13,903 nucleotides of DNA from an uncultured bacterium (GCA_965368975.1 CBDUPA010000048.1:1-13903), one strand, 5' to 3'. Shown: positions 1 to 13,903, counted from the stretch's first letter. Notes: generated by a model not told the origin, from the sequence alone. Numbers and translations are program-made.

Positions 1-68
1 AGCCTCGGTTGCCCAATAGCCTCGAAAATCTTCGCTTCGGTTGGGGTTTTAAGCCCAGGGTAAAGCAA

Positions 69-147
69 GGGTGCGCCTGGCCTGCCACCCCCGTGCACCC
101 CTGCGGAGCCGAGGGTGCCACCCCCAGGCACCCTGGCGGGTACCGCC
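69..147. repeat. GC-rich cluster of short inverted and direct repeats
   Basis: GGGTGC (69-74)/GCACCC (95-100); AGGGTGCC (112-119)/GGCACCCT (127-134) 8-bp stem; GGCGG (135-139)/CCGCC (143-147); direct repeat TGCCACCCCC at 83-92 and 116-125. Function unknown. Confidence 0.4.
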
Positions 148-476
148 GGCCGCGGACCGTACACCCTCGCCAGCCTCGTTACGTGCTCACGGAAACGACG
201 AAATGGAATACCGATACGAACTCGTGGCGACCGGCGATATGGTGACGAGGGTCGGCGATTTGTTGCCCGGTGTCGGGGACTTCTTCCGTGCTCCCGGTAC
301 AGCGAACTGGAACCGGCCGACTGTTTGGTCAAAAGCACACCTTGGTCGTCATTCGAGCTGAGGTACTGAGGTGGTATCCTCCCGTGGCGGGTGCCGCGAT
401 CGTAGATTCTTCAACAAGATACAGGTGTCCGAAAGTTTAGCAGTGACCTAATAGAGCCGGAGGTGGGGTAACAAAC

Positions 477-1589
477 ATGTGGGAACCGACACGCTTCGAG
501 AAGCGTATGCAACAGGCGCTTGAGAGCGAACTGAACCAGGCTGATGCAGAGAATTTCTATAGCCAGTACATCAGCGCGCGTAGAATTCTGCTCAAGGACA
601 TCTACGGAGAAATTCGTGGCGCCGAGCCCAATCTTACAGACCACGGCGCAGACCATATTCAAAATGTTCTGAAAAACCTAGAAGCACTCCTCCCTCCACC
701 GGAAATGGAAGATCACTTCACTGCCCTAGAACTCTATCTGCTCGGCCTTACAGTGCTATTTCATGATGTTGGGAATCTGGAGGGGCGTGCCGAGCACAAC
801 AAGCGGATAGCACGTTTCTACGACTATGTCCGCCGTGATTCACCCGAGCGAATCATGAATGAGAAACGACTTGTGATTGCTGCAGCGAAAGCGCACACAG
901 GACGCTCCTCCGATGGAGATCGCGACACCCTCCGTGATGTCCCTGAGGATGAGTACTTTGAGGCCGAGCGCGTGAGACTTCGCCAACTGGCTGCTCTTCT
1001 CCGGTTTGCTGATGAGCTGGCAGAAGGTCTTCAGCGAACATCTCTCTACCTCCTTCAAGAGCAAAACTACCCCCGAGACTCAGAACTACACCACCGGTAC
1101 TCATCTGTGACGCACGTGGCAATTGATCGTCAAAGAGGAAGAATAGCACTCAACTACCATGTGGATTTTGATGTACTTTCTGATACCCTTGAGGGACGCT
1201 TAGAAGCGCTAGAAAAGCTCCTGCAGTATGTCTGCGTTCGAATCACAAAGCTAGACGAAGAACGAAGGTATGCCAGATTTTACTGCACCCAGGTTCTGGA
1301 CCCATTTCAGAAGACTTCGGCTCGCATCGAGATTCATAGTGAAGGCGAGTTCTTGGACCTGGGACTCGGTTCAATTGAGCTCTCAGACAAGGTGATTCCC
1401 AATGGGAGATCGGGTGCCCACGATCAGATTTCTAGGGCGTTCGATCCAGCGAGGATCAAAGATATTGTGAAGTCGAAGGTGTCAAGAAGGCGCGATAATG
1501 TCCGTGGCCAGGTAGACGCAGCTGGCGGACAGGCCGCGGCACAAGATGACGAGACCATGAACTTGAGTGGTACGGGAGAGTTCTCGTGA
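477..1589 (+). CDS. HD-superfamily metal-dependent phosphohydrolase (HD-CE-like conflict effector), 370 aa
   Basis: Motifs LTDHGADHIQNV, LFHDVGN (HD), RAEH, AKAH and LAALLRFADEL supply the H..HD..H..H..D ligands. GGAGGT at 459-464 precedes ATG 477. Confidence 0.85.
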   Translation: MWEPTRFEKRMQQALESELNQADAENFYSQYISARRILLKDIYGEIRGAEPNLTDHGADHIQNVLKNLEALLPPPEMEDHFTALELYLLGLTVLFHDVGNLEGRAEHNKRIARFYDYVRRDSPERIMNEKRLVIAAAKAHTGRSSDGDRDTLRDVPEDEYFEAERVRLRQLAALLRFADELAEGLQRTSLYLLQEQNYPRDSELHHRYSSVTHVAIDRQRGRIALNYHVDFDVLSDTLEGRLEALEKLLQYVCVRITKLDEERRYARFYCTQVLDPFQKTSARIEIHSEGEFLDLGLGSIELSDKVIPNGRSGAHDQISRAFDPARIKDIVKSKVSRRRDNVRGQVDAAGGQAAAQDDETMNLSGTGEFS

Positions 1590-3328
1590 CAACGATCAAC
1601 CCTTTTTCCTTCTCCGCTGCAACAGATTTAGAGGCGGGTGATCTACTTTATTATTACATTTCTGATCACAATCACTCGCGTTTCATTCAGTCTAAGCGGA
1701 ATATCTTCTTGCTCGGTGAGCGTGGTTCCGGCAAGACTATGACACTTCGCTTTCATTCACTTGAGGTTCAAGAGCTGAAGGCTAAAGAGTCTCAGTCTAA
1801 GCCTTCCCTTGACTGGATTGGAGTCTATGTCCCCTGCAGGACTCCGTTGACACAGCGGACGGATCATGAGCTGCTGGACAAACAACGAGGCTACGTCTTG
1901 TCAGAACATTTCCTTTCGCTTTCGATTCTCAGTGCCATTCTCCAGGCTCTAGAGGTTATTCGGGAAGCATTTCGCACTCTAGATGAAGGCGCGCTCTCGG
2001 AAGAGGTTGAGGCAGTTCTGGCAACGACTCTGCCGGCAGGAAGCAGCTTCCTGTCAAGAATGAGGCGTTTTACCGCGGCAGAAGCAAGAAGAACACAAGT
2101 AGCGATTAACCAAGCGGACGAGGATTTCTATCCCAATGCATTTTCGTTTGCAACTCTCGTTATCCCGATGCTGGAAGCACTGACAAGAATGGAGCCCTTC
2201 TCAAGGTCTCACTTTCTGATCATGCTCGACGATGCAGACTACCTGAACCCACATCAGATTCAAGCGGTAAACTCATGGATCGCATATCGAGATCACTCAA
2301 GATTTAGCTTTAAACTAGCGACTTCGAAGGTCATGCGTCCACATCGCATTACCTCCTCGGGAGGCTCTATCGCAGAGGGCCACGATTTCACGGTAGTTGA
2401 CATGGAAAACCCACTCCACAACGAGCGATCCGACTTTGGGCGTCTTGCCCGACTAATAATCGAGCGACGGCTTGAACGAATCAAATGTAAGTCGACCCCA
2501 GAAGAGTTCTTCCCTGTAGGTCCCTCAGTTGAACGTCAGTTAGAGGAGTGCAGGGCACAGGCACGGACAGAAGCCAAACAGAAGTATCCAAACGGAAGTG
2601 ACAAGCAGATCAGTGACTATGTTTATAAATATTACCGGGCCATCTTCTTCCGAAGACGGCCCAAAGCTAATCGCCCCGTGTATTCCGGATTTGACATGAT
2701 TACTTATTTGTCGACAGGCGTTGTGAGAAATCTCTTGGAGCCTTGCTATGCGATGTACGATAAGGCGCTGTCGCGGACATCGGACCAAGAGTCAGATAGT
2801 TGTCCGATTCAGAGTATCAGCCCTACGATTCAGAGTGAGGTTATTCTAGCTCTGAGCGAGCGACCGTGGGCAAAGCTGGAGGAAGGGCTTCACAACCACA
2901 TTGCTGACTGCACTAAGAAGCAAGCAGAGCAGCTCAAGCAACTGTTCGATGCCTTGGCTCGACTTTTTCGAGAACGCTTGCTCTCAAATTGCTCAGAGCC
3001 GAGAGCAACTTCTTTCACAATTTCAGGAGGGGATTCATTGGAGAGACAAGAGCTGGACCAGCTGCTGAGCATTGCGAGGAAGGCTCTACTACTATACGCG
3101 CGGCAAGGCCCGGCAAAAGCAGCTGGCGCAAGGGAGACATACTATGTCCCGAGTCGTATGCTCTGGCCTGCAAGAGGTTTAGATCCGCTTGGTCAACACG
3201 CTCGTGTCTCACTGAAGGCGAAGGATCTGATGGCAGCGGCTCGCGGCCAGACTAAGCCGTGGACCGGAGCAAGTAAGTCACCGACGCTATCCGACGAGCA
3301 GGCGAGGCTATTTCATGAAGAGAGTTGA
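1586..3328 (+). CDS. P-loop ATPase, ORC/CDC6-like AAA+ type, 580 aa
   Basis: Walker A GERGSGKT, Walker B FLIMLDD after a helical insert, then FKLA, GHDF and LSTGVVRNLLEPC segments. The GTG start overlaps the upstream TGA (GTGA 1586-1589). Confidence 0.85.
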   Translation: MTTINPFSFSAATDLEAGDLLYYYISDHNHSRFIQSKRNIFLLGERGSGKTMTLRFHSLEVQELKAKESQSKPSLDWIGVYVPCRTPLTQRTDHELLDKQRGYVLSEHFLSLSILSAILQALEVIREAFRTLDEGALSEEVEAVLATTLPAGSSFLSRMRRFTAAEARRTQVAINQADEDFYPNAFSFATLVIPMLEALTRMEPFSRSHFLIMLDDADYLNPHQIQAVNSWIAYRDHSRFSFKLATSKVMRPHRITSSGGSIAEGHDFTVVDMENPLHNERSDFGRLARLIIERRLERIKCKSTPEEFFPVGPSVERQLEECRAQARTEAKQKYPNGSDKQISDYVYKYYRAIFFRRRPKANRPVYSGFDMITYLSTGVVRNLLEPCYAMYDKALSRTSDQESDSCPIQSISPTIQSEVILALSERPWAKLEEGLHNHIADCTKKQAEQLKQLFDALARLFRERLLSNCSEPRATSFTISGGDSLERQELDQLLSIARKALLLYARQGPAKAAGARETYYVPSRMLWPARGLDPLGQHARVSLKAKDLMAAARGQTKPWTGASKSPTLSDEQARLFHEES

Positions 3329-4217
3329 TAAGCTTATTGCGGTAGCAAGTTGGGAGCCAAGATTCTATCTTGGGCTCAAGAGGTTGACTCAGCAGGTGAA
3401 GATAAAGAGGTTTGAAATATTCTATTTTCGGGAGTATGCGGAGCGCACTGACTCTGTACGTAAGGAAGCAGCGCTCCTAGCGCGAAACCACGACATCTCC
3501 TGCTCAATGCACGAGCTCTGTTTCGAAGATCCGGCTGCCTCATGGAGGGAGATTTCCTCAACTGTACGCACCGATATCTCAAGTAATAGCAACGTGCTCG
3601 TTGATATCACTACCATGCCACGGGAAACTATATGGTCAGTGCTCTTCTGGTTAGAGGTGTCGAGAGCAAATGTTTCCTATGTTTATCATAGGCCTGAGAG
3701 TTATTCTCAGTCTTGGTTAGCTCGGGATCCGGATCCTCCTCGTTTCGCTTTCAAGCTCGCAGGATCTCCAGAATTGGATAAGCCAACTGCAGTAGTTGCT
3801 GTCACTGGGTACGATAACGAGAGAGCTGTACAGGCAATTGACTTTCTAGAACCTTCCCAGGCAATCCTGTTTAGGCAAATTGGAGATCAACTGGAGAACT
3901 GTGAGCGGAGAGTTGATGAGTCTAACCTCATTCTGTCTCGAGATCTCCATGTGCAGGTGCTTGAGATCGATGCTTACTCTGCCGATCACGGGTTTACCCA
4001 ACTCTATAGACTCACAAGAGATCTGGCGAATACTTACAACGTAGTCATGTTCTCCTTCGGCCCCAAACCCTCAGCGGTGTGCTTATTCAGGGTCCAGCGT
4101 AGAGTGCCGCAAGTTAGCCTCGCGTACATACATTGCAAAGACTATAGTGAGGCTTACTCGACAGGAATTGGGGCGACCCTACAGGGTGCTCTCGCTCTGC
4201 AACCAGAGAGCGCTTGA
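3315..4217 (+). CDS. Hypothetical protein, probable tandem CARF-like Rossmann fold, 300 aa
   Basis: Overlaps the ATPase gene by 14 nt. Two alpha/beta halves: LIAVASWEPR...VLVDITTMPRE...YHRPESY and VVAVTGYDNER...VVMFSFGPKP...YIHCKDY. The CDS is secure; the fold is inferred. Confidence 0.7.
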   Translation: MKRVDKLIAVASWEPRFYLGLKRLTQQVKIKRFEIFYFREYAERTDSVRKEAALLARNHDISCSMHELCFEDPAASWREISSTVRTDISSNSNVLVDITTMPRETIWSVLFWLEVSRANVSYVYHRPESYSQSWLARDPDPPRFAFKLAGSPELDKPTAVVAVTGYDNERAVQAIDFLEPSQAILFRQIGDQLENCERRVDESNLILSRDLHVQVLEIDAYSADHGFTQLYRLTRDLANTYNVVMFSFGPKPSAVCLFRVQRRVPQVSLAYIHCKDYSEAYSTGIGATLQGALALQPESA

Positions 4218-4230
4218 GGTAGTAGTCAGC

Positions 4231-5427
4231 GTGTTGACATTAGACTTGTGCTCTGGTGCTGGCGGCCTTACGAGGGGGTTTGTGCAGGCCGGATTTGAGG
4301 TTAAGCTGGCAATTGAGGTTGACCCGCATGCGGCGAATAGCTACCGAGCCAACTTCGACAGCGTCGAGCTCTTGTGCGAAGATGTGAGGGATGTACCCGA
4401 TGAGTTCTTGGTACGAAAGGTCAAAGAATTGGGAGGGCCACTTGGAGCTGTCATTGCAGGTCTTCCCTGCCAAGGTTTCTCAGAATCTAACCGTAGATCT
4501 CGCACTCGCGAGAATCCAAAGAATCAACTCTATCGGGAATTTCTAAGGATCCTGCGGATCCTCTCTCCTCGGTGGTTTGTCATCGAGAATGTAGCCGGAA
4601 TAACTACTCTAGAATCTGGAGTTTTCTTAGATAGCATCCTAAGGACGTTTCGTGGTGCTGGCTTTAAGGTCTGTGCGAAGGTCTTGGATGCTAGTGATTT
4701 CTCTGTACCGCAAGTCCGCCGGAGAGCTTTCATCGTCGGGAACAGTATTGGGGTAAATTTCAAATTTCCAGATCCGCTGGAGTTGCCTGCAACTGAGAAG
4801 CCTACAGTACTTCATGCAATCTCGGATCTCCCTACCTTAAGGAACGGGGCACAGGAGGACATTGTTGATTATAGGATTGCTTGGGAGGCTGCGAGTAGAT
4901 ACGCGCAGAATCTTCGGCCTCAAGACTCACTTGCAGTAACAGGTAACCGCGTAAGCCGAAATACAGATCGTGTCTTGGCGAGATATAGACATATACCACA
5001 GGGCCGTAACTGGACAGCAATTCCGTCCTCGATGATGAGAAATTACAAAGATCTAAGTGCTTGTCATACGGGGATCTATTATCGATTGGCTTGGGATCAG
5101 CCGTCCAAGGTGATTGGGAATTTTCGGAAGAACATGCTCATCCATCCCGAGCAACATCGAGGACTGTCGATTCGGGAAGCTGCCCGCTTGCAATCGTTCC
5201 CAGATTCTCACACCTTCTTGGGGCCACTTAATCACTGTCAGCAGCAGGTGGGCGACGCAGTGCCTCCCTTATTGGCAGAGGCAGTTGCCCGAGCGATCTT
5301 TCGAGCTGATCCCCTATTTTCAGCTAGTCTGGTGAGCCAGTCAGCGAGAATTGAGACATACCGATTGATAACAGCAGGCAAGACAGGCCCCCCTGACCCA
5401 TTTCCAGGCTCAGCTTCGGCTGATTAG
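4231..5427 (+). CDS. dcm: DNA (cytosine-5)-methyltransferase, about 398 aa
   Basis: Motif I DLCSGAGG, IV GLPCQGFS, VI ENV, VIII QVRRRAF, IX RGLSIREAARLQSFPD, X QQVGDAVPP. Start moved from 4147 to the in-frame GTG at 4231 (GAGGT at 4216-4220), which removes a 71-nt overlap. The symbol denotes the family only, not CCWGG specificity. Confidence 0.95.
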   Translation: MLTLDLCSGAGGLTRGFVQAGFEVKLAIEVDPHAANSYRANFDSVELLCEDVRDVPDEFLVRKVKELGGPLGAVIAGLPCQGFSESNRRSRTRENPKNQLYREFLRILRILSPRWFVIENVAGITTLESGVFLDSILRTFRGAGFKVCAKVLDASDFSVPQVRRRAFIVGNSIGVNFKFPDPLELPATEKPTVLHAISDLPTLRNGAQEDIVDYRIAWEAASRYAQNLRPQDSLAVTGNRVSRNTDRVLARYRHIPQGRNWTAIPSSMMRNYKDLSACHTGIYYRLAWDQPSKVIGNFRKNMLIHPEQHRGLSIREAARLQSFPDSHTFLGPLNHCQQQVGDAVPPLLAEAVARAIFRADPLFSASLVSQSARIETYRLITAGKTGPPDPFPGSASAD

Positions 5428-5470
5428 GCAAGGCTCTCTACCGAAGCCGCCAGGCGGGACCTGGGCGGGG

Positions 5471-5492
5471 TATTTGGGTCCATACTTGGGTC
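5471..5492. repeat. Tandem 10-bp direct repeat TA(T/C)TTGGGTC, candidate integrase arm-type binding sites
   Basis: TATTTGGGTC (5471-5480) and TACTTGGGTC (5483-5492), about 135 bp inside the tRNA-derived att core. Confidence 0.4.
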
Positions 5493-5624
5493 TTTCAGGA
5501 CGTTAATTTTACGTAAACTCGCGATAGCCCCTGCAATACCCTAAGTTGAGTTATGTCAGTGCTTAACGGTGAAACTTGCACCCTGCTGACGGTCAATGAA
5601 ATCCTATTCAACACCGAACTCATT

Positions 5625-5672
5625 TGATTCGTAATCAGCAGGTCACCGGTTCAAGCCCGGTCGTCGACTCCA
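5625..5672 (+). pseudogene. 3' fragment of tRNA-Thr(CGT); attachment-site core
   Basis: TGA-TTCGTAA-TCA anticodon arm (CGT at 5630-5632), variable loop AGGTC, T-arm ACCGG-TTCAAGC-CCGGT, acceptor strand CGTCGAC, then T and CCA (5670-5672). No D-arm or matching 5' acceptor strand upstream. Confidence 0.9.
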
Positions 5673-6082
5673 GTTCAACCTCTTTATTCCCAATACTTAG
5701 ACTATTGTAGCTGCTCAGCAATTGAGTGGCAAGCCGTGGTGCGGGCCTCCATCGGGGCTTCCTGGCATGAGATTTGGTGCAATTTGAGATTGCTGCAGCG
5801 AATTGGCTGTTGCTGCTCCAGGGATGGTCGATGATGAGGTTTGCTGTTTTACTCTGGCACGCATCACCGGTGGCATCTGCGAGTCTGTGCTCTCTCCAGC
5901 GCAGGCGGGTGAGAAACCCGCTACTTGTGGCTGTCTAGTCAGCAGGAGCCTGTGCAGCAGGGAGCCTCGCAGTCTGCAGTGGTGGTGTCCAAACGGGCGA
6001 GAGTTCGTAGGCGTACGAATCATGCGAAGTTGCCTTGGTGCTAATGACCGGCAAGAACTATTCCTTTGTCTTGGAGACCAAC

Positions 6083-9000
6083 ATGCGCACGTCCTCTATC
6101 TTTGTCAGTCTGATTTTGGTCCTCGCTCTCTATCCCGCCGAGGCGACGATTTACTGTTCCGACCTTGCTCCGTCCGTCCAGAACACCTTTGTCGAGTTCA
6201 CTCCCGGCGCCAATCCGCAGCTGCCGAGTACTTTCTGCTCTGCCGGCGGTGCCTACTGCACGACACCAATCGCGAGTGCCGTGCAGTACGAAGTCGAGGC
6301 TGCTTGTGACCCGACGGACGAAGGTGGTGGCGGCTGCTACGTGCGAGCGACAGTACCTCTCCAGTTTCCTGGCAACAGTCAGAATGGCTTCAACCAGCAC
6401 TCCAAGGTCTTTTGGTTTCGCCAGGGCAACCCGGCGCCGAGCGGCGTCTGTGCTCCGGGTGGCTTTCCGACCGGCAACGGCTGCTCACCCAACTCCATCT
6501 GTGGCTCCAGCTTCAACGAGATTCTTGTCGAGGAAGGTGAGACGTTCATCCAGGTCGGCGGGCTGCACTGTGGCAATGTCTTCAACGCCGAAGGTTTGCA
6601 GATGTGGCAGGTCGACGCAATCAGCTGTAACTTCCGGTCCGCCTCCAGCTGCGTGCGTCAGACCATCGTCCCCGTCGATCTGACGGCCTCGCTCGTAGCC
6701 GGTCTCTTCAACTGCCCTGAACCGCCTCCGGAATACGACTGCGACTGCTCGACGTGTCCTTCTATCGGCAGCTCAGCAGGGGGCGGTGGTGGTGGCAGTG
6801 GCAACGCCGGTGACGGAGCCGGCAGCTACGACGGCGGTCTCGCGACCGGACCAGGTGCGCGCCTCTATTACCGCGCCAAAGGCGTCGGCACAGCTGGTCA
6901 TCCCGGTTCAGTCTCTTGGGGAGTTGAACTCGGCGTCGGCTGGTCGCACCACTACGCAATCCGGATCGTCGAAGATCCCGACGCCAACCACGTCTGGTTC
7001 CTCAACCGCATGGGGAGCTTCCGCGAGTTCTCGAACCCGGACGGCTCGGGCGTCTACCAGACGGTGAACCCGAGCGATGAGTACCGGACTTTGACCCACC
7101 TGAGCGACGGAATGGGTGCGACGCTGGGCTGGGAGCTGCGTGAGCTGGACGGCACTGTCCACGCCTTCGGGGCCACCGGTCGCTGGACCTCGACGACGGA
7201 CCGCTTCAGCAACGCCAAGACGGCGACTTACACCGGGGGTCAGCTGACCCACGTCGACTTCCCTGACGGTCGCAGCGAGACGTTCACCTACCATGGCAGC
7301 GGCAAGCTGGCGACGATCTCCGAGGTTGGTGTAGACAGTGTCACGACGCGCACTTGGTCCTATACCTGGACCAGCGACGAGTTGACGCGCATCGATGCAC
7401 CGGACGGCACGGCGCTGCTGTTCCTCTACAGCGGTGGCTACCTGACCCGCGTGACCAAGGAAGGAACCAGCGGCGGCCTGCGCGTCGAGGCGGCGTGGGA
7501 GTACACGGGCGGCCGGGTGACCCGGATGTGGCGCGGGGATGTTACCCATGATGGTCTCAACTCAGTAGAACTCTATGAATTCGCCTACGACATGCCCGGA
7601 CTGCCCACCGAGGTCGATGTCACCGATCCATTGGGCAACGTCTCGACCTACCACCTGGGTCGCGACGAGGCTGGTAACAAGCCGAGGTTGGAGCAGCTCG
7701 AAGGTGATTGTCCGACCTGCGGGCTCGGCCCGAATACTGTGCTGACCTACGGCGATCCGAGCCACCCGCTGCGTCCGACGCAGGAGGCAGACGGGCGTGG
7801 CATCGTGACGACCTACGCCTACGATGCCAACGGTCAAGTCATCAGTCGCGTCGAAGCCCTGGGCACGGCGCTGGAGCGCGAGACCACGTGGCAGTACGAT
7901 GCGACCTACCCCGCGCTCGTGACTCGCGTCGAACGGCCGTCCGTCGAGGGTGCGCCGGAGACGCGCATGACGATCCACACCTACAGTGCAGGCGGCGCCC
8001 TCCAGCAAAGCCAGGAGAGTGGCTTCGAAGACAGCTCGCCCTTTGTGTTCGACACCCTCTACACCACGAACGGTGCCGGTATGCGCACCAGCGTCGATCC
8101 GCCCGGCCACGGCACTGCCGATGCCATCAGCTGGACCTACGATGCGACGCGCGGCGATCTGATCTGGCTCAACCGCACCGACCCTCTGATCGGTGCCACC
8201 ATCTTCACCTACGACGCCTTCAACCGCCGCACTCAGGTCACCGACCCCAACGGCGTGGCCACCGAAACGGCGTACGACGCGCTCAACCGCGTCACCTCCT
8301 TCACCCAGAAGGGCGCTAGCCCAGCCGAGGACCTGGCGACCACGTACACCTACACCGAGTTCGGCGACCTCTTCCAGGTCACCCTGCCGCGCGGCAACGT
8401 GATCGAGTATCGCTATGACGCTGCTGGCCGTCTGAGCCGCATCGAACGCAAGCCCGATCTCGCCGGCCGCGCCGAGCGCACGCTCTACACGCTCGATACC
8501 TACGGTCACCGCATCCAAGAACAGTTCCAACGCTGGAACGGCGCCAGCTTCGACACCGAGAGCACCACCAGCTATACCTACTCGACGCGCTGCAATCTGG
8601 ACCAGATCCAGCACGCCGACGGCTCCGTGACCGAGTTCGCCTACGACTGTAACGGCAACCTGACCGATGTCTGGGACGCCAACCACCCCAGTGCCAGCCA
8701 GACAAACCCACCCACCACGCTCTACGCGTACGATTCGCTCAACAGGCTAGAGCAAGTCAGCCAGCTGTGGGGCCCGGGACCAGGTGCGACCTACACCCAG
8801 GCGGACTATCAATATGACGTCCAAGATCACCTTGTGAGCGTCACAGACGCCGAGGGCAACGCGACGGCGTACACTTATAGTGACCGCGACCTGATGACCG
8901 AAGAGTCGTCGCCGGTCTCCGGAGTCACCAGCTACGTCTACGGTGACTCTGGTCAGCTCACCAGCGAAACCGACGCCCGTGGTATCACCACGGCACGCGT

Positions 9001-10885
9001 TTACGACGATCTGGACCGCATCACGCAGGTCGATTACTCGGGAACCGACTTGGACATCACCTACACCTACGATGATCCCATGGTTGACTTCAGCCTCGGC
9101 CGGCTGACCCAGATCGGCCGAGCCAGTGGCAACGTCGACTACCAGTACGATCGATTCGGCTGGGTCACGCAGGACGGCGCTTTCACCTACGCCCACGACG
9201 CCAACGGCAATCGCCAGACCATCACCTACCCAGGTGGCCTTATCGCCACGTACACCTTCGACCATGCCGACCGCGAAGTCAGCCTGACCGCACAGCCCTC
9301 CGGTGGCAGCGTCCAGAGCATCGCCAGCGCTGCCACCTACGCCGCGCTCGGCCCCCTGACATCGCTGACCCTGGGCAACGGCCTGACCGAGAACCGCGCC
9401 TGGACGCCGAGGTACTTCCCTCAATCCATCGAGTTGAGCGGTGCTGGCGGCACCGCGCTGCGTTGGAACTACAGCACTGACGCCGAAGGCAACATCACTA
9501 CCATTTCCAACCCTAACAATGCTGCCGACAACCGGACGTTCGCCTATCAAGACGTGCAGTACTACTTGACCTCGGGCAATGGTCCATGGGGTGCTCTGAG
9601 CTGGACCTACGACCAGATTGGCAACAGGTTGACCGAGACGCGGGATGGGCTGACCGATACCTACAGCTACGTCCAGAACGCCGGCTCGAACAACACCGCC
9701 ATCTTGGAGCAGATCCAGCTCGGCATCGGTGGTCAGCGTTCGTACCAGCACGGCCCCGCTGGGCACATGACACAGATCGATTCCGCCGGCAACGTCACCG
9801 ACCTAGCGTACGACGCTGCTGGAAGATTGAGCCAGTTGCTCAAGCCGGTCACTCAGAACACGACCGACTTCTTGTACGACGGTCGTTCGTACCTGGTGAG
9901 TTCGGAAGCCGGTGTGATGGACGGCATTTTCGCGGACGACTTCGAGCTAGGTACCCTGAGCTGCTGGTCTTCGAAGTACGACAACGGAGTCGTCACCACC
10001 TCCGGGCAAGACTGCCAAACGTTCGTGACACTGCCCACCTACAGCTCCGAAGGTGTGCTGCATTCGCTCGACAAATTCGACGGTAGGGAAGGCATCGACG
10101 AGGTGCAGCACTTCCTGTACTTTGCGGGTCGGCCGGTGGCACAGGTGGCCGAGGCGAGTGGTGGCGTGGTTTACGAGTGGATCACGACGGATCACCTCGG
10201 AACGCCGGCAGTTGTCACGGATGCTGTGGGCATCGAGGTGTGGAGCGGGGGATTTGAGCCGTTCGGGCGGGATTATTCGACGGCGGCGGGGACGTCGTTG
10301 CGGTTGCCGGGGCAGTGGGAGGATGGGAGCTGGGAAGGAAGCGGATCTGGGGTGCTCCCATACCAGAATGTGCATCGGTGGTATCTCGCAGGTAATGGCC
10401 GGTTCTCCCGAAGCGATCCAATCGGATTGGCAGGAGGACTGAATATTTTCTTGTTCGGAGCAGGAAATCCTGTATCAAGGACCGATCCCTTGGGATTGCA
10501 GACGCGAAATGATCTAGCAGACTTCAAGATTCCCACTGCAGAAGAGATTGAGAAAGCTCACCAACGAATTTGTGCTCGTCAGGCATTCTTTGGCAACTAC
10601 AGCGATATGGTGGAGGCGAACTGGAGAAAGTCCGATAAGTACTTTCACTGTAAGGCGAATTGCGAAGCTGCCCGGTGTGGAGATTTCGGATTTCAACATG
10701 CTTGTCAATTAAGTGATCTCAGGGAATCCTTCGATCGCATTATAAAAGGAGATCCTCCAAGCGCCTCAGAAGAAGATCAGGCAGCAAATAGACATGGCAG
10801 GGAAGGGGCGAGAGAGTACCCGGACAAGACCTGCCAGATCATCTGTGCTCGTTTTCGGCCTAAGGGGTTGCCTGAAGAATACTAG
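6083..10885 (+). CDS. rhs: Secreted Rhs/YD-repeat polymorphic toxin with serum amyloid A-like C-terminal domain, about 1600 aa
   Basis: ATG 6083 with GGAGA at 6073-6077; signal peptide MRTSSIFVSLILVLALYPAEA; Cys-rich N-domain; LGVGWSHHY motif; many YD repeats; Rhs core end TDHLGTP...PGQW...HRWY...GRFSRSDPIGLAGGLN...NPVSRTDPLGL; 128-aa tip from 10499. Confidence 0.95.
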   Translation: MRTSSIFVSLILVLALYPAEATIYCSDLAPSVQNTFVEFTPGANPQLPSTFCSAGGAYCTTPIASAVQYEVEAACDPTDEGGGGCYVRATVPLQFPGNSQNGFNQHSKVFWFRQGNPAPSGVCAPGGFPTGNGCSPNSICGSSFNEILVEEGETFIQVGGLHCGNVFNAEGLQMWQVDAISCNFRSASSCVRQTIVPVDLTASLVAGLFNCPEPPPEYDCDCSTCPSIGSSAGGGGGGSGNAGDGAGSYDGGLATGPGARLYYRAKGVGTAGHPGSVSWGVELGVGWSHHYAIRIVEDPDANHVWFLNRMGSFREFSNPDGSGVYQTVNPSDEYRTLTHLSDGMGATLGWELRELDGTVHAFGATGRWTSTTDRFSNAKTATYTGGQLTHVDFPDGRSETFTYHGSGKLATISEVGVDSVTTRTWSYTWTSDELTRIDAPDGTALLFLYSGGYLTRVTKEGTSGGLRVEAAWEYTGGRVTRMWRGDVTHDGLNSVELYEFAYDMPGLPTEVDVTDPLGNVSTYHLGRDEAGNKPRLEQLEGDCPTCGLGPNTVLTYGDPSHPLRPTQEADGRGIVTTYAYDANGQVISRVEALGTALERETTWQYDATYPALVTRVERPSVEGAPETRMTIHTYSAGGALQQSQESGFEDSSPFVFDTLYTTNGAGMRTSVDPPGHGTADAISWTYDATRGDLIWLNRTDPLIGATIFTYDAFNRRTQVTDPNGVATETAYDALNRVTSFTQKGASPAEDLATTYTYTEFGDLFQVTLPRGNVIEYRYDAAGRLSRIERKPDLAGRAERTLYTLDTYGHRIQEQFQRWNGASFDTESTTSYTYSTRCNLDQIQHADGSVTEFAYDCNGNLTDVWDANHPSASQTNPPTTLYAYDSLNRLEQVSQLWGPGPGATYTQADYQYDVQDHLVSVTDAEGNATAYTYSDRDLMTEESSPVSGVTSYVYGDSGQLTSETDARGITTARVYDDLDRITQVDYSGTDLDITYTYDDPMVDFSLGRLTQIGRASGNVDYQYDRFGWVTQDGAFTYAHDANGNRQTITYPGGLIATYTFDHADREVSLTAQPSGGSVQSIASAATYAALGPLTSLTLGNGLTENRAWTPRYFPQSIELSGAGGTALRWNYSTDAEGNITTISNPNNAADNRTFAYQDVQYYLTSGNGPWGALSWTYDQIGNRLTETRDGLTDTYSYVQNAGSNNTAILEQIQLGIGGQRSYQHGPAGHMTQIDSAGNVTDLAYDAAGRLSQLLKPVTQNTTDFLYDGRSYLVSSEAGVMDGIFADDFELGTLSCWSSKYDNGVVTTSGQDCQTFVTLPTYSSEGVLHSLDKFDGREGIDEVQHFLYFAGRPVAQVAEASGGVVYEWITTDHLGTPAVVTDAVGIEVWSGGFEPFGRDYSTAAGTSLRLPGQWEDGSWEGSGSGVLPYQNVHRWYLAGNGRFSRSDPIGLAGGLNIFLFGAGNPVSRTDPLGLQTRNDLADFKIPTAEEIEKAHQRICARQAFFGNYSDMVEANWRKSDKYFHCKANCEAARCGDFGFQHACQLSDLRESFDRIIKGDPPSASEEDQAANRHGREGAREYPDKTCQIICARFRPKGLPEEY

Positions 10886-11084: not shown

Positions 11085-11171
11085 GTCACGAGCTACGTCT
11101 ACAGCGACTCCGGCCAGCTGACCAGCGAGACCGACGCGCGCAACATCACGACCACCCGGACCTACGACGAC
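11085..11171 (+). pseudogene. Orphan Rhs core fragment, paralogous to 8924-9010
   Basis: Encodes VTSYVYSDSGQLTSETDARNITTTRTYDD versus VTSYVYGDSGQLTSETDARGITTARVYDD in the full gene: 25/29 aa and 66/87 nt identical by hand count. Confidence 0.9.
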
Positions 11172-11899
11172 CAGGTCGAAGCCAGCCTGGGCGAGCTGGC
11201 AGCGGCACGCCGCTTGGCTCGGGATGCGGAGGAGCTGTACTTGCAAGCGCGCGCCTACTTCGCGCTGGATTGCAGGCCTACCATTTGGCACGCCTCGCAG
11301 CCTGGCAAGCGCAGTCCGCGCGGGCCGTCGAGGAATTGGAGCGTGCTCTCCAACTGCTTGATCTACCTACCGTGCCTCGGCTGCGTCGCTGGCTGCTCGT
11401 CGAGCTGGCATTCTTCTATTTTGAGACAGGAGCTGCCGTGCGGGGTAGTGAAGAGATGGAGTTAGCCCGATCGCTGGGGCCCCGCTCCTCGGACCTGGAC
11501 GCCGCCCGGGGCCTACTGTTTGTCCACACAGGAGAGGTGCCGGAAGGGCTTCGTTGGTTGGGCAAGGCGCGCGAGAGCGTGCAAGCCTCACAGCCAGGAG
11601 TGCCTGTGCATCGCTCTTTGCCAATCCTCACGCTGGACTTGGTCGAGGCGGAGCTGACCTTGCCCTCACCGCGCCGCGATCCGGCCCGCTGGCTAGAAGA
11701 CGAGGCTTCGCGTGCGGCACTGGGCCAGCGTCCGCCATTGTTGCAAGAGCGCTGGCGACAATTGGTGCCCAAGGTGCGCTTGAACCAGGTAGAGCCGACC
11801 TTGCTCCATCTCCTGTGCGCCGATCTGCAACGCGCCGAAGCTTTTCCGCACCGGGAATGGGTGGCGGGTGCCGCCAGCCCAATCCTGAGTTCTAGGTAG
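11172..11899 (+). pseudogene. 5'-truncated, probably frameshifted helical (TPR-like) gene remnant
   Basis: QVEASLGELAAARRLARDAEELYLQARAYFAL in one frame continues as AYHLARLAAWQAQSARAVEELERALQLL...ARGLLFVHTGEVPEGLRWLGKA in another, with a frame change near 11265-11270. No convincing start or RBS. Confidence 0.5.
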
Positions 11900-11972: not shown

Positions 11973-12091
11973 GGTACCAGCCCATCCGGGTGCCAGCCTG
12001 TTCAGCTCAGGCTGACGCCCTCCCAGCAAACGGCCCGATCCAGCGTTGCACCGCCGAACCGGGCCTAGCCACTCAAAGGAGGATTGTTCCC

Positions 12092-12502
12092 ATGAGTGAC
12101 CAGCCGCAGCATACCAATGCGCAGCCGCCGAGCGCCCTGCAGCCGCGCCACTGGGAGGCGCACGCCGTCTTCCGCGAGACGTACTTGCACCTCTACCCGG
12201 AAGCGTATAACCGCGACGCCTTCCGCAGCGTCGGCGTGACGCTCTACGACAACGCCCTGCTTCACGAAGAAACCTACAAGGAGCGCGGCGAAGTACCGGT
12301 CAAGTCGGACCTGCGCGCCGCGCTCCGGGACCTGCGTCAGCTGCAAGGCTACATCCACCACCTTGGTGCAGAGGCGGGCAGCGACGACGACCCCGAGATC
12401 GTCCAGTTCCAGAGCCTGGCGATCGAGGTGTCTGAACAACTGGGAGTCCAAGCAGCCCAGCTCGAAGCAAGCCTGGGGGCAGCTCCGGACCAGGAGAGCT
12501 GA
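12092..12502 (+). CDS. Hypothetical protein, 136 aa, helical C-terminal half
   Basis: Strong RBS AAAGGAGGA (12075-12083) before ATG 12092, in frame with the 11990 ORF; GC3-rich codons; 3 nt from the next gene. Confidence 0.8.
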   Translation: MSDQPQHTNAQPPSALQPRHWEAHAVFRETYLHLYPEAYNRDAFRSVGVTLYDNALLHEETYKERGEVPVKSDLRAALRDLRQLQGYIHHLGAEAGSDDDPEIVQFQSLAIEVSEQLGVQAAQLEASLGAAPDQES

Positions 12503-12505
12503 GCG

Positions 12506-13492
12506 ATGCCGGACATGAACACCGGCACCCACGTCGCACAAGCCGAGCAGGAGATCCAGCGTTGCTGCGCGCAACTGCTCGTTCGCTTTGGAGCAGAGCT
12601 TGGGCGATATCCGCCGCGGATCTGCATCCAGGGTTTGTCACCTGGATCGGACCGCAGGCGAGACGAGCAGCCGCAACCGGTACGCGTACCCGCGCATGCT
12701 CTGACGGGCTCGAGGTCCGAGGTTTTGACGGCGTTGCTCCATGCGATGGTGCACTGGGTCAACGGTCTGCGCGATATCAAGGACTGTTGCTATCGCGGCT
12801 ACCACAACCGCAGATTCCGCGACCTCGCCCAGCAAGTCGGCTTCGAGGTCGGAGAGCGTGTGCACCGCTTCGGCTGGACCGATCTGCAAACGAGTGCCGC
12901 ACTCACAGCTGAGCTTCAGGAGATCTCGTTCGACGAGAGCATCCTGTCTCCGCTGCTGGCGGGACTCAGCGCCGAGAAGCGACGCCCTCGACCCTGTCGC
13001 ACCAACCTTCCGAGACGCCGACCGGTCAGCCCTTTCTGGCAGGACGGTAGTGCCCTACCGAGGCTATCGCGCCTGCGCGTCGAACTGGTGCGCGAGGCGA
13101 GCGCACCCTTGCACACGTACCCTCGGGTGCGTGCTCAAGGTGACGCCGCCGCGCTGCTCTGGCAGGTTCTGCAGAGCTACGACCGCGAAGCCTTGGCCGT
13201 GCTGTTCCTGGACGCAACCCGCCGCGTGATCGGCTGGGATGTGCCGTACATCGGCACCCTTACCGGTGCGCAGGCCGAGCCGCGTGGCATTCTGGTACCG
13301 GCGCTGCTGGCGCAGGCGCGATCGGTTGCTGTTGGGCACAACCACCCCTCGTGCAACCCGAGACCAAGTCGGCAGGATGAACGCTTCACGTACCGGCTGC
13401 GCGAGGCTGGGCGAGTCCTGGGCGTCGAGCTGTACGTCTCGATCACGCTCGTGGGTGCCGGCCAGTGGCGCCAGATCCTGCCGGTGCGGTGA
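12506..13492 (+). CDS. radC: Fusion of a SprT-like zincin domain (degenerate) and a RadC-like JAB domain, 328 aa
   Basis: N-half LLHAMVH...GYHNRRFRDLAQQVGFEV...GW; C-half DREALAVLFLD...IGTL...EPRGI...GHNHPSCNPRPSRQD...AGRVLGVEL. Confidence 0.85.
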   Translation: MPDMNTGTHVAQAEQEIQRCCAQLLVRFGAELGRYPPRICIQGLSPGSDRRRDEQPQPVRVPAHALTGSRSEVLTALLHAMVHWVNGLRDIKDCCYRGYHNRRFRDLAQQVGFEVGERVHRFGWTDLQTSAALTAELQEISFDESILSPLLAGLSAEKRRPRPCRTNLPRRRPVSPFWQDGSALPRLSRLRVELVREASAPLHTYPRVRAQGDAAALLWQVLQSYDREALAVLFLDATRRVIGWDVPYIGTLTGAQAEPRGILVPALLAQARSVAVGHNHPSCNPRPSRQDERFTYRLREAGRVLGVELYVSITLVGAGQWRQILPVR

Positions 13493-13502
13493 GGGAGGGG
13501 AT

Positions 13503-13903
13503 ATGCCGAAAGCCCACCTGACCCACCGCATCATCGATACCTTGACTGCGGGCGAGTGGATGACCGACTACTGGGATCCGCAGTTGCCCGGCTTTGGGGT
13601 ACGTGTCTCCAAGAGCGGTCGCAAGACGTTCATCGTGCGCTACCAGGGCGCCAACGGCAGCAAGCGCCGCTTGAATCTGGGCATGTATCCCGTGATGAGT
13701 CTGGCCGAGGCCCGCGACCAAGCCCGCGAGAAGCTAGCCGCTATCGCCAAGGGCGAGGACCCGCAGGTCGAGAAGGTTGTAGAGCGCGAAGCGCCGATCT
13801 TCGGGGAACTGGCCGAGGTCTACCTGGAGCGTCACGCCAAGGTGAAGATGTGGGCGGTCATCAGAAAACGCCGTAATTCGGTCGTTTCGCTCATTTCCCT
13901 GAA
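13503..13903 (+). CDS. int: Tyrosine integrase, N-terminal arm-binding (DUF4102-type) domain; partial, runs off the window
   Basis: Translated by hand, not in the ORF track: MPKAHLTHRIIDTL...DYWDPQLPGFGVRVSKSGRKTFIVRYQGANGSKRRLNLGMYPVMSLAEARDQAREKLAAIAKGEDPQ...FGELAEVYLERHAK. GGAGGG at 13494-13499 precedes the start. Confidence 0.9.
   Translation, partial: MPKAHLTHRIIDTLTAGEWMTDYWDPQLPGFGVRVSKSGRKTFIVRYQGANGSKRRLNLGMYPVMSLAEARDQAREKLAAIAKGEDPQVEKVVEREAPIFGELAEVYLERHAKVKMWAVIRKRRNSVVSLISL

Follow-up and report, generated by a model that had tools for sequence, protein, structure and literature searches.

A recurrent, mobile cassette of an HD-CE phosphohydrolase, an ORC/CDC6-like ATPase, a tandem-CARF protein and a C5 DNA methylase as a probable anti-phage system

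What would a cytosine DNA methyltransferase be doing in one operon with a phosphohydrolase, an ATPase and a candidate nucleotide sensor? The question arises from a stretch of 13,903 nucleotides from an uncultured bacterium, which we call, at its full length, the window, and in which a sequence-only reading had proposed an uncharacterized defense operon directly against an island attachment site. The four genes stand on the plus strand between 477 and 5427, and the ORF coordinates bear out both their co-orientation and the junctions of -4, -14 and +13 nt given in that reading, with overlaps of 4 nt between genes 1 and 2 and of 14 nt between genes 2 and 3. Its domain calls (HD-CE, ORC/CDC6-like ATPase, CARF-like protein, C5 methyltransferase) all hold against Pfam, PADLOC and fold comparison, and the catalytic motifs of the cassette are all intact. 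The features on which the argument draws are these:

477..1589, plus strand: HD-CE phosphohydrolase, 370 aa, predicted effector (PF24391)
1586..3328, plus strand: ORC/CDC6-like AAA+ ATPase, 580 aa, predicted switch and possible DNA sensor (PF24389)
3315..4217, plus strand: tandem-CARF protein, 300 aa, predicted nucleotide or oligonucleotide sensor (PADLOC CARF6 and fold)
4231..5427, plus strand: C5 cytosine DNA methyltransferase, 398 aa from GTG 4231 (PF00145)
1..315, no strand assigned: repA repeat, an internal segment conserved within an island family, upstream of variable cargo and truncated by the contig start
5553..5712, plus strand: island end (att) in three parts, aligned to the tRNA-Thr gene and four non-tRNA copies

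The four genes are passed on together and evolve as one unit. In a search for loci with the CARF alignment, the full set of four was found in 32 of 38 independent loci from many bacterial phyla, which excludes chance, and the remaining six loci are accounted for by contig-end cuts or decay. Gene order follows that of the window in 6 of the 32 complete loci and runs methylase-HD-ATPase-CARF in the other 26. The methylase is present in 34 of the 38 loci, the contig ends at its place in three, and one is a lone CARF remnant; the synteny check that the sequence-only reading had named beforehand found it beside genes 1-3 wherever its position could be assessed, in 34 of 34 loci. For the four proteins, pairwise-distance matrices show correlations of r 0.59-0.89 across 31 loci plus the window, a level reached in 0 of 500 permutations.

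The unit is also mobile. GC content lies at 0.48-0.54 from about 250 to 5750 and at 0.58-0.68 in most of the remaining window, in agreement with the lower GC first remarked on, and it reaches the genome level just to the right of the att block. This block begins 125 nt downstream of the cassette and comprises a conserved island arm (5553-5624), a 48-nt 3' part of tRNA-Thr(CGT) with a terminal CCA (5625-5672) and a conserved stretch downstream (5673-5710). The att site proposed earlier is real: its middle part is identical to the 3' 48 nt of the true tRNA-Thr(CGT) gene (G000:C15:32268-32343), and the whole 160-nt block of 5553-5712 recurs at four further places in the genome. At the other flank, repA has 15 matches in its own genome at E<=0.001, including the window copy, at 71-100% identity; other copies reach further left than that of the window, and none of the Rfam families matches the repeat. 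On another contig, C28, repA stands between a RadC-integrase backbone and a different cargo. The cassette rides as cargo on a tRNA-Thr integrative island; sister copies of this island bear different defense genes, those in the same genome being SIR2-NACHT, TIR-SIR2, nSTAND1, CHAT plus Mrr, an HSP90-like ATPase and a TIR-kinase. The flanks of the foreign loci hold type I restriction-modification genes, AbiEii/AAA_21, DUF1156, DUF499, Schlafen-AlbA_2 and integrases.

Because a mobile unit that recurs across phyla is here the cargo of a defense island, the cassette is very probably an anti-phage system, of a kind that has so far been predicted only computationally. We are confident, short of certainty, that it is one horizontally mobile anti-phage or anti-plasmid system of a class that combines this ATPase, a CARF protein and a methylase with an exchangeable effector. 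The class itself has very probably been described computationally already: genes 1 and 2 lie far above the Pfam cut-offs of PF24391 and PF24389, which ties them to the predicted CE-effector/ORC-CDC6-like conflict systems, and the families PF24389-PF24391 reportedly derive from the computational work of Nicastro, Burroughs, Iyer and Aravind (NAR 2023, doi 10.1093/nar/gkad879). PADLOC gave no system-specific match and NCBIfam no family over its cut-off, homologs are labeled "hypothetical protein" in RefSeq, and no named, tested system matching the cassette turned up in PADLOC, NCBIfam, the PDB or the literature searched, as the sequence-only reading had supposed. The same literature showed no tested member of the ORC-CDC6-like/CE-effector class. 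Should phage protection by the cassette be borne out, a whole class built from an ORC-like ATPase, a tandem CARF, a methylase and a swappable effector that targets nucleotides or NAD would have its first tested member.

The putative effector belongs to the HD superfamily. Gene 1 scores 99.1 bits against PF24391 (HD-CE; cut-off 27), and its metal site is intact, with H56, H60, H96, D97, H107, H140 and D179 invariant in 32 sequences. Its AF2 model (pLDDT 90.9) resembles the nucleases YhaM (Z 10.7) and Cas10d (Z 8.5) as well as the hydrolases and phosphodiesterases PDE3A (Z 10.8), Rel (9.3) and SAMHD1 (8.1), all of them middling values for a helical protein, and the likeness to SAMHD1 is lower than that to phosphodiesterases (10.8). 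Judged from this model, the fold matches do not separate nucleases from nucleotide hydrolases or phosphodiesterases, nor do they point to one subfamily. The PDB contains no sequence relative of the ATPase or the CARF protein, and none of the HD-CE enzyme at E<0.01. HD domains can act as nucleases, and the describers of the HD-CE family are said to have named it a nucleotide-targeting effector.

Nine sister systems, by which we mean loci whose ATPase belongs to this family, bear on the choice. The slot between methylase and ATPase is filled there by a PRTase-CE protein (L079), a calcineurin-like phosphoesterase (L080), a nucleoside-phosphorylase-like protein (L082) or SIR2 (L084); HD-CE, PRTase-CE and calcineurin-CE, the effector types of the CE-effector systems, thus all occur beside this ATPase family. 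In the report on PUA-Cal-HAD (bioRxiv 10.64898/2026.01.15.699771), a calcineurin-CE enzyme collapses dNTP pools, the system being triggered by Dam-derived m6-dAMP. Effector swapping in the sister systems, together with this dNTP collapse elsewhere, supports a nucleotide-directed effector, and we lean toward an HD-CE enzyme that acts on free nucleotides rather than on DNA. As reported, PUA-Cal-HAD shares with the cassette a nucleotide-sensing domain, a CE-class phosphoesterase and a dependence on DNA methylation, and is linked to it by the calcineurin-like enzyme that stands in for HD-CE in L080. It differs in its PUA rather than CARF sensor, its HAD partner, the lack of an AAA+ ATPase and the use of housekeeping Dam in place of a methylase of its own.

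The second and third proteins would supply sensing and switching. Gene 2 matches PF24389 at 320.1 bits (cut-off 27, E 4.1e-95); its Walker A motif reads G44-E-R46-G47-S-G49-K50-T, with an Arg within the P-loop, and G44, R46, G47, G49 and K50 as well as D215 and D216 of Walker B are invariant in 34 ATPase sequences. DNA binding by this ATPase is expected on the strength of its family membership alone. Gene 3 matches no Pfam family at E<=0.01, the CARF ones included, but it does match PADLOC CARF6 profiles (best E 3.4e-22), CARF6 being reportedly a clade of Makarova et al. 2020, and its relatives give weak matches to Csa3_N and HFX_2341_N only. The AF2 model of the protein (pLDDT 89.5, pTM 0.90) resembles Csa3 (2wte; VIA Z 15.4, rmsd 2.8, 135 aligned), Can1 across both domains (6sce; Z 14.6, rmsd 3.5, 232 aligned) and the SAVED domain of Cap5 (Z about 9.5), and so shares a fold with sensors of type III CRISPR and CBASS. 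It is accordingly modeled as two CARF-like Rossmann domains in one chain with conserved ligand-site loops, a pseudo-dimer like Can1 and SAVED. Full or near-full conservation marks S12-W13-E14-R16 and D97-T100-M101-R103 in the first half as well as G165-R170 and S247-G249-P250-K251 in the second; in the model these residues sit at strand ends, in each half within the loops that follow strands 1 and 4. We take the D-x-T-x-x-x-R loop after strand 4 to be the CARF motif, and the polar loops after strands 1 and 4 to be the ligand site. Unlike the CRISPR and CBASS sensors, the protein carries no fused effector, has an AAA+ ATPase as its partner and resides in a genome (99.3% complete) in which neither Cas10 (TIGR02578, 31 bits against a cut-off of 170; TIGR02577, no match) nor a SMODS cyclase (PF18144, no match) was detected; the cassette likewise encodes no Cas10 and no CD-NTase. 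What a CARF protein binds where no cyclase exists is one testable question that the cassette poses.

The two proteins likely form a complex. Their joint model scored 0.82, compared with 0.42 for the best of three controls; the score mark used is reached by 58 of 80 solved complexes versus 2 of 110 mismatched pairs, counts that hold only roughly because our own alignments were used. The runs had at least 86% of contacts in common with a partner pLDDT of at least 83, and, among invariant residues, the predicted interface takes in P142, R143 and G150 on the CARF side and L96 on the ATPase side. The model supports an arrangement in which the tandem CARF uses its conserved inter-domain linker to dock on the ATPase at the N-terminal AAA+ part. 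A form with kinase, ATPase and CARF fused is present in PADLOC (PDLC01925) and at locus L082, and also appears in an earlier paper (PMC4012209). The earlier proposal that a sensor licenses the effector gains support from this predicted complex and from effector swapping in the sister systems.

The fourth gene matches PF00145 (DNA_methylase) at 199.7 bits. Its ORF can begin at 4147 or 4231 and ends at 5427; the Pfam domain begins at residue 31 of the longer ORF, and the start is most plausibly GTG 4231, 13 nt past the TGA at 4215-4217 and preceded by GAGG at 4216-4219. In the numbering of the 4147 ORF, PC (P107-C108), ENV (147-149) and Q189-x-R-x-R193 are conserved in 35 methylases, and among proteins of solved structure the catalytic domains of DNMT1 come closest in sequence (E 4e-40). 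Within the variable region, 200-335, 39 positions are conserved in at least 92% of these methylases, a pattern that suggests one fixed target sequence.

We favor, by a modest degree, the view that the whole is a methylation-linked abortive-infection system with an ATPase-CARF switch and a nucleotide-hydrolyzing HD-CE enzyme. The ATPase-CARF complex would serve as sensor and switch, the ATPase reading DNA and the CARF protein a nucleotide or oligonucleotide of an origin other than a Cas10 or CD-NTase cyclase. Once activated, the complex would release the HD-CE enzyme, which would most likely hydrolyze free nucleotides (dNTPs, NTPs or a related pool) and not DNA, and the loss of nucleotides would lead to growth arrest or abortive infection. 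The methylase would mark host DNA in a way on which the system depends, the mark most likely holding the ATPase, as a reader of DNA, in check on self DNA, so that the logic would be that of restriction-modification with a metabolic output in place of a nuclease. Taken by itself, the proposal that the mark is read as "self" on DNA is tentative, and we place it somewhat below an even call; nothing specific favors the other role once suggested for the methylase, that it is guarded by the other three genes. Several observations count against this abortive-infection scheme. An extra ThyX gene, found in 10 of the 38 loci and in 4 of the 9 sister systems, falls outside it; the complex model is a prediction in which one control reached 0.42; and sister locus L085 has no methylase within the scanned stretch.

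Alternatively, the methylome itself may supply the alarm, a reading that we consider unlikely. The methylase would label host DNA, breakdown of that DNA by a phage would free methylated mono- or oligonucleotides, and these would bind the tandem CARF, upon which the ATPase would switch on HD-CE and nucleotide pools would collapse. The additional ThyX would serve either to adjust the pyrimidine pool or to produce the ligand. No cyclase is encoded in cassette or genome, and yet the ligand loops of the CARF protein are invariant, a single-chain pseudo-dimer suits an asymmetric ligand, and recurrent ThyX and Vsr (the latter in 9 of the 38 loci) point to nucleotide-level, methyl-pyrimidine biochemistry. 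Methylase chemistry varies among the sister systems (C5, N4/N6 or Dam-like), and their CARF partners are very divergent (hhalign probabilities 46-95%). We know of no case, however, in which a CARF domain binds a methylated nucleotide, and the ATPase is given no clear role. PUA-Cal-HAD, with its m6-dAMP trigger, is a direct precedent (bioRxiv 10.64898/2026.01.15.699771), but its reliance on housekeeping Dam weakens the parallel. If this reading were true, the cassette would offer a CARF sensor that works without a dedicated second-messenger synthase and a form of danger sensing based on system-encoded self-labeling.

A restriction-modification system proper, with ATPase, CARF protein and HD enzyme as an NTP-dependent restriction enzyme whose HD domain cuts DNA that lacks the m5C mark, seems to us improbable. 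A partner that cuts DNA is the simplest explanation of an obligatory methylase, a point against the preferred abortive-infection scheme, and this methylase co-evolves with the other genes, stands first in the operon in 26 of the 32 complete loci and appears to have one fixed target; Vsr shows that m5C is written genome-wide, and YhaM and Cas10d among the fold matches recall that HD domains include nucleases. A strict link between a cognate DNA methylase and an NTPase module is likewise shared with type I-III restriction-modification, BREX, DISARM and Druantia. Of the cassette proteins, however, only the methylase matches PADLOC profiles of such systems (Type II methyltransferase, DruM, DrmMII), and genes 1-3 match none for the signature proteins DrmA/B, DruA-E or PglZ/BrxC. 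Pfam and PADLOC recognize no endonuclease, PglZ, helicase or PLD domain in the cassette, and with NCBIfam added no restriction-endonuclease or nuclease domain in the scanned ORFs of at least 60 aa in 1-6030, which upholds what had been read from the sequence. The cassette shares with classical type II restriction-modification a C5 methyltransferase with conserved motifs, but not a recognizable endonuclease beside it. The sister systems weigh further against a DNA-cutting enzyme, since the slot is filled there by PRTase-CE, SIR2 or a calcineurin-like enzyme, none of them a DNase, and the methylase is still kept. The CARF nucleotide-sensor fold has, to our knowledge, no role in known restriction-modification enzymes, and the reported naming of HD-CE as a nucleotide-targeting effector also speaks against this reading. 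Why a system with a non-DNase effector always keeps a DNA methylase is a second testable question.

That the cassette is not primarily for defense, being instead an island-stabilizing addiction module in which the other three proteins are set free once the methylase is lost, or a housekeeping set of methylase, Vsr, ThyX and HD nucleotidase for 5-methyl-pyrimidine nucleotide hygiene, is very improbable: it would fit residence on integrative islands and a conjugative plasmid, patchy spread (not found in any of 5 genomes from the same family; ATPase family present in 10 of the 401 genomes from the phylum, its own counted) and co-occurrence with ThyX and Vsr, but the window has neither of these two genes, hygiene would leave the AAA+ switch and CARF sensor superfluous and misfits sister systems with N6/N4 methylases or SIR2 effectors, and addiction and defense are compatible rather than mutually exclusive. 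As a strict four-gene unit of about 5 kb with a named homolog on the conjugative plasmid, the cassette makes an easy cloning target.

The four-gene cassette at window positions 477-5427 is a real, intact and well-conserved set of defence-type genes. The sequence-only reading had described four co-oriented genes with tight junctions and lower GC, and this description proved accurate wherever we checked it against open reading frames, domain profiles and GC. The source genome comprises 7.1 Mb in 59 contigs, one of which is the entire 13,903-bp window, and its cassette genes are as follows.

477-1589, + strand: gene 1, HD-CE phosphohydrolase, 370 aa (PF24391, 99 bits, cut-off 27)
1586-3328, + strand: gene 2, ORC-CDC6-like AAA+ ATPase, 580 aa (PF24389, 320 bits, cut-off 27)
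3315-4217, + strand: gene 3, CARF-like protein, 300 aa (nine PADLOC 'CARF6' profiles, best E 3.4e-22)
4231-5427, + strand: gene 4, C5 DNA methyltransferase (PF00145, 200 bits)

Genes 1 and 2 overlap by 4 nt and genes 2 and 3 by 14 nt, while the methylase most plausibly starts at the GTG at 4231, 13 nt past the gene 3 stop, with a GAGG at 4216-4219. GC is 0.48-0.54 across the cassette versus 0.58-0.68 in most of the remaining window. Searches of Pfam and NCBIfam assigned no family to gene 3; the 'CARF6' name originates with Makarova et al. 2020.

The earlier suspicion that this is not a named, tested system is borne out by the lack of any such system in PADLOC, NCBIfam, PDB sequences, RefSeq names and the full-text literature. 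The proposed PADLOC check returned no system model for genes 1-3 in PADLOC v2, no NCBIfam family scored above cut-off for the cassette genes, and searches of the accessible full-text literature turned up no paper on the gene set. 'CE' stands for 'conflict effector', and the CE families trace to Nicastro et al. 2023. Three Pfam accessions in a row, PF24389, PF24390 and PF24391, correspond exactly to the ATPase and to two of the effectors that occupy one slot. Because of this shared origin and these accessions, we infer that the class was already predicted in that work, and the cassette would belong to a computationally predicted class without a tested member. The present analysis contributes the strict four-gene unit with an obligatory methylase, a tandem-CARF fold for gene 3 that is predicted to dock on the ATPase, ThyX and Vsr as accessory genes, and the setting in a tRNA-Thr island.

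The gene 3 family is rare but real: a collection of 5.8 billion proteins contains 81 further members at 33-52% identity to the window's protein, and a library of 1.84 billion representatives has 191 clusters at E<=1e-30. When 185,579 species genomes were scanned for the pattern, 38 loci were recovered, spanning Acidobacteriota, Planctomycetota, Bacteroidota, Chloroflexota, Desulfobacterota, Nitrospinota, Verrucomicrobiota, Gammaproteobacteria and others. Synteny across genomes, a check suggested at the outset, holds in 32 of the 38, where all four genes lie together, six times in the window's order and 26 times in the order methylase-HD-ATPase-CARF. Contig ends truncate the cassette in two loci where the methylase is still visible (L012, L031) and fall at the expected methylase place in three others (L027, L035, L041). 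Distance matrices of the four proteins correlate at r 0.59-0.89, and 500 permutations produced no correlation as high; because kin are not independent, the result goes no further than co-inheritance. The matrices cover 31 loci plus the window, after removal of loci missing one or more of the four genes and of L010, which has E-values identical to those of L009 for all four proteins and is apparently the same sequence. No cassette was found in five genomes of the same family, and ATPase matches occurred in only 3 of 55 genomes of the same order, all of them weak. This patchy distribution fits horizontal transfer.

Three copies are decayed or rearranged: one is a lone CARF fragment (L040:1319-2005), one has its methylase and HD genes partly duplicated in tandem (L024:3434-5160), and in one an ISL3 transposase splits the ORC-like gene (L081). 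The apparent long HD reading frame at locus L014 was rejected as a run-on of the ORF caller. One 810-aa representative (P0201) has GNAT and class I SAM methyltransferase domains fused to its tandem CARF, and in L027 a separate methyltransferase-GNAT gene (L027:3739-5091) follows the CARF gene at a distance of about 1.5 kb; this combination may be a further variant of the class.

The ATPase family extends to sister systems. PF24389 occurs in 10 of 401 sampled genomes of the phylum, the source genome included, and we compared nine neighbourhoods, eight from PF24389-positive genomes of the phylum and one from a plasmid hit. A DNA methylase lies near the PF24389 gene in eight of the nine, with varied methylase chemistry and a varied gene in the effector position, as in these examples.

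L087, Agrobacterium salinitolerans conjugative plasmid pDG3-1c, NZ_CP074396.1 110441-115390: C5 methylase; HD-CE; thyX and vsr alongside
L079: N6_N4 methylase; PRTase-CE (PF24390); CARF-like partner; ThyX
L080: Dam-like methylase; calcineurin-like phosphoesterase; CARF-like partner
L084: N6_N4 methylase; ParA and SIR2; kinase-ATPase fusion
L082: C5 methylase with Vsr nearby; nucleoside-phosphorylase-like protein; kinase-ATPase fusion

The three core proteins of the plasmid system are annotated in RefSeq as 'hypothetical protein'. Aligned with the partner genes by hhalign, the tandem-CARF profile gave probabilities of 95% for a further sister locus (L083), 51% for L079 and 46% for L080. A methylase, an ORC-like ATPase and a CARF protein thus form the constant core, and the effector is swappable among nucleotide- or NAD-acting enzymes.

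Within this core, structures were modelled for the CARF protein and for its predicted pairing with the ATPase. The gene 3 model (pLDDT 89.5, pTM 0.90) has two Rossmann-like domains, and its structural matches are headed by the CARF proteins Csa3 (Z 15.4) and Can1 (Z 14.6 over 232 residues, covering both domains), followed by Can2, Cad1, Csm6 and ring nucleases, with SAVED domains at Z ~9.5; the ESM Atlas returned only unnamed clusters. Invariant residues lie in the loops past strands 1 and 4 of each half, the place where CARF domains bind their ligand. Prediction of the ATPase-CARF complex scored 0.82, versus 0.42 for the best of three controls. Among solved complexes 58 of 80 come up to that mark, as do 2 of 110 mismatched pairs, counts that are rough because the alignments were custom. 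Model runs shared at least 86% of contacts, with partner pLDDT of at least 83, and place the CARF inter-domain linker (residues 138-155, with invariant P142, R143 and G150) on ATPase residues 85-96 and 160-177. Alignment profiles of the ATPase, HD and CARF proteins retrieved no relatives among PDB sequences at E<0.01; because neither chain of the complex has a solved relative, the score is unlikely to reflect memorised structures, and the modelling supports binding of the CARF protein by the ATPase. The ATPase itself has an invariant Walker B DD and a P-loop, GERGSGKT, with an internal arginine, a feature noted in Makarova et al. 2014 (PMC4012209) for a kinase-AAA+-CARF fusion family.

We propose that the ATPase-CARF complex would combine a DNA cue with a nucleotide cue and would then license HD-CE to degrade nucleotides, so that infection is aborted, while the methylase mark would keep the cassette silent on self DNA. 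A 2026 preprint from the Aravind group makes a similar argument for other systems of the ORC-CDC6-like kind, in which a DNA sensor is accompanied by a separate nucleotide sensor. In the source genome neither Cas10 above cut-off nor a SMODS cyclase was found, and signalling by cOA from a type III CRISPR or CBASS system resident there was rejected; the CARF ligand therefore has to originate from the cassette, host metabolism or infection. Less probable rivals to this model are an alarm derived from the methylome, a genuine restriction enzyme in which the HD protein serves as a DNase, and an addiction or hygiene role.

The methylase (window 4231-5427) keeps all catalytic motifs. Of the 99 positions that are conserved in 92% or more of 35 sequences, 39 fall in its variable region (200-335), a pattern suggestive of one fixed specificity. 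Among solved sequences, those nearest to it are DNMT1 catalytic domains of eukaryotes (E 4e-40, in two stretches spanning both halves), ahead of M.HaeIII (E 3e-28) and M.HhaI.

HD-CE has an HD fold (model pLDDT 90.9) with invariant H56, H60, H96-D97, H107, H140 and D179, and its structural neighbours are mixed: cyclic-nucleotide phosphodiesterases (Z 10.8), YhaM exonuclease (10.7) and GppA/PPX (10.6), then Rel (9.3), Cas10d (8.5) and SAMHD1 (8.1). Fold comparison therefore leaves several substrate classes possible, and Foldseek against the PDB gave no match to the HD model at E<=0.001. A nucleotide-directed HD-CE is favoured over a DNase mainly because the sister effectors act on nucleotides or NAD. 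A preprint shows that a calcineurin-CE enzyme of another system collapses dNTP pools (bioRxiv 10.64898/2026.01.15.699771).

Two accessory genes recur with the cassette. A ThyX paralogue adjoins it in 10 of the 38 loci (L016, L021, L022, L024, L028, L030, L033, L035, L036, L037), in three of them (L033, L036, L037) with a 4-nt overlap between the CARF stop and its own start, and Vsr is present in nine. In all five genomes checked this ThyX is an additional copy beside a housekeeping ThyX or ThyA, and all 12 sequences keep the RHR motif; the paralogue is apparently active. ThyX also accompanies the sister systems L079, L083, L084 and L087; because these include N6/N4 methylases, its role is not bound to m5C. 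No remnant of ThyX or Vsr was detected in the window by tblastn.

The setting of the cassette became clear only through comparison with the rest of the genome, which revealed an att site; within the window there are no direct repeats flanking the cassette, no tRNA by ARAGORN and no Rfam family, the terminal repeat included. The att block starts 125 nt past the methylase stop. Positions 5625-5672 are identical to the 3' 48 nt of a genuine tRNA-Thr(CGT) gene on another contig, in the same register from anticodon loop to CCA, preceded by ~70 conserved bases (the 'island arm') and followed by ~40. The genome has four further att-type blocks, none called as tRNA by ARAGORN.

At the other end, a repeat (repA, window 1-315) has 15 matches in the genome, the window copy counted, and probably caused the contig break. 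It is GC-rich, longer than 400 bp and without a clear ORF, sits between island backbone and variable cargo, and also occurs on contigs C54, C28, C46, C38, C51, C41, C50, C15 and C37. Contig C28, in window orientation, carries att, a ~150-aa gene, RadC, a P4-like integrase, unknown ORFs, repA and a three-gene cargo, with a weak 22-nt att-like match past the cargo. The window opens inside repA and has the four-gene cassette in the cargo place, then att; by this layout, the cassette is cargo of one member of a tRNA-Thr integrative island family. Genes adjoining the sister repeats are of defence type.

C28 (L059, C28:40000-59500): HSP90-like ATPase and two partners
C54 (L064): CHAT and Mrr
C15 (L060, L061): SIR2-NACHT, nSTAND1-pentapeptide, TIR-SIR2
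C49 (L063): TIR-kinase-FGE-sulfatase

The family may be a defence hotspot. The tRNA-Thr islands, among them one on C41 (L062), share the RadC and P4-like integrase backbone and carry varied defence-type genes. At window 11990-13901 lie a 170-aa ORF, RadC (12506-13492) and a P4-like integrase that breaks off at the right contig end after its N-terminal part (Arm-DNA-bind_3). The sister islands have this same backbone module, so a second island probably begins at this point. Between the two, an RHS-repeat protein of 1616 aa (6035-10885, + strand) has a low-GC tip, its C-terminal 100 residues matching serum amyloid A (PF00277, E 7.6e-25), and downstream of its gene 91 nt (11085-11175) repeat an internal Rhs segment at 76% identity. 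The arrangement is reminiscent of an orphan Rhs fragment accompanied by spare toxin tips.
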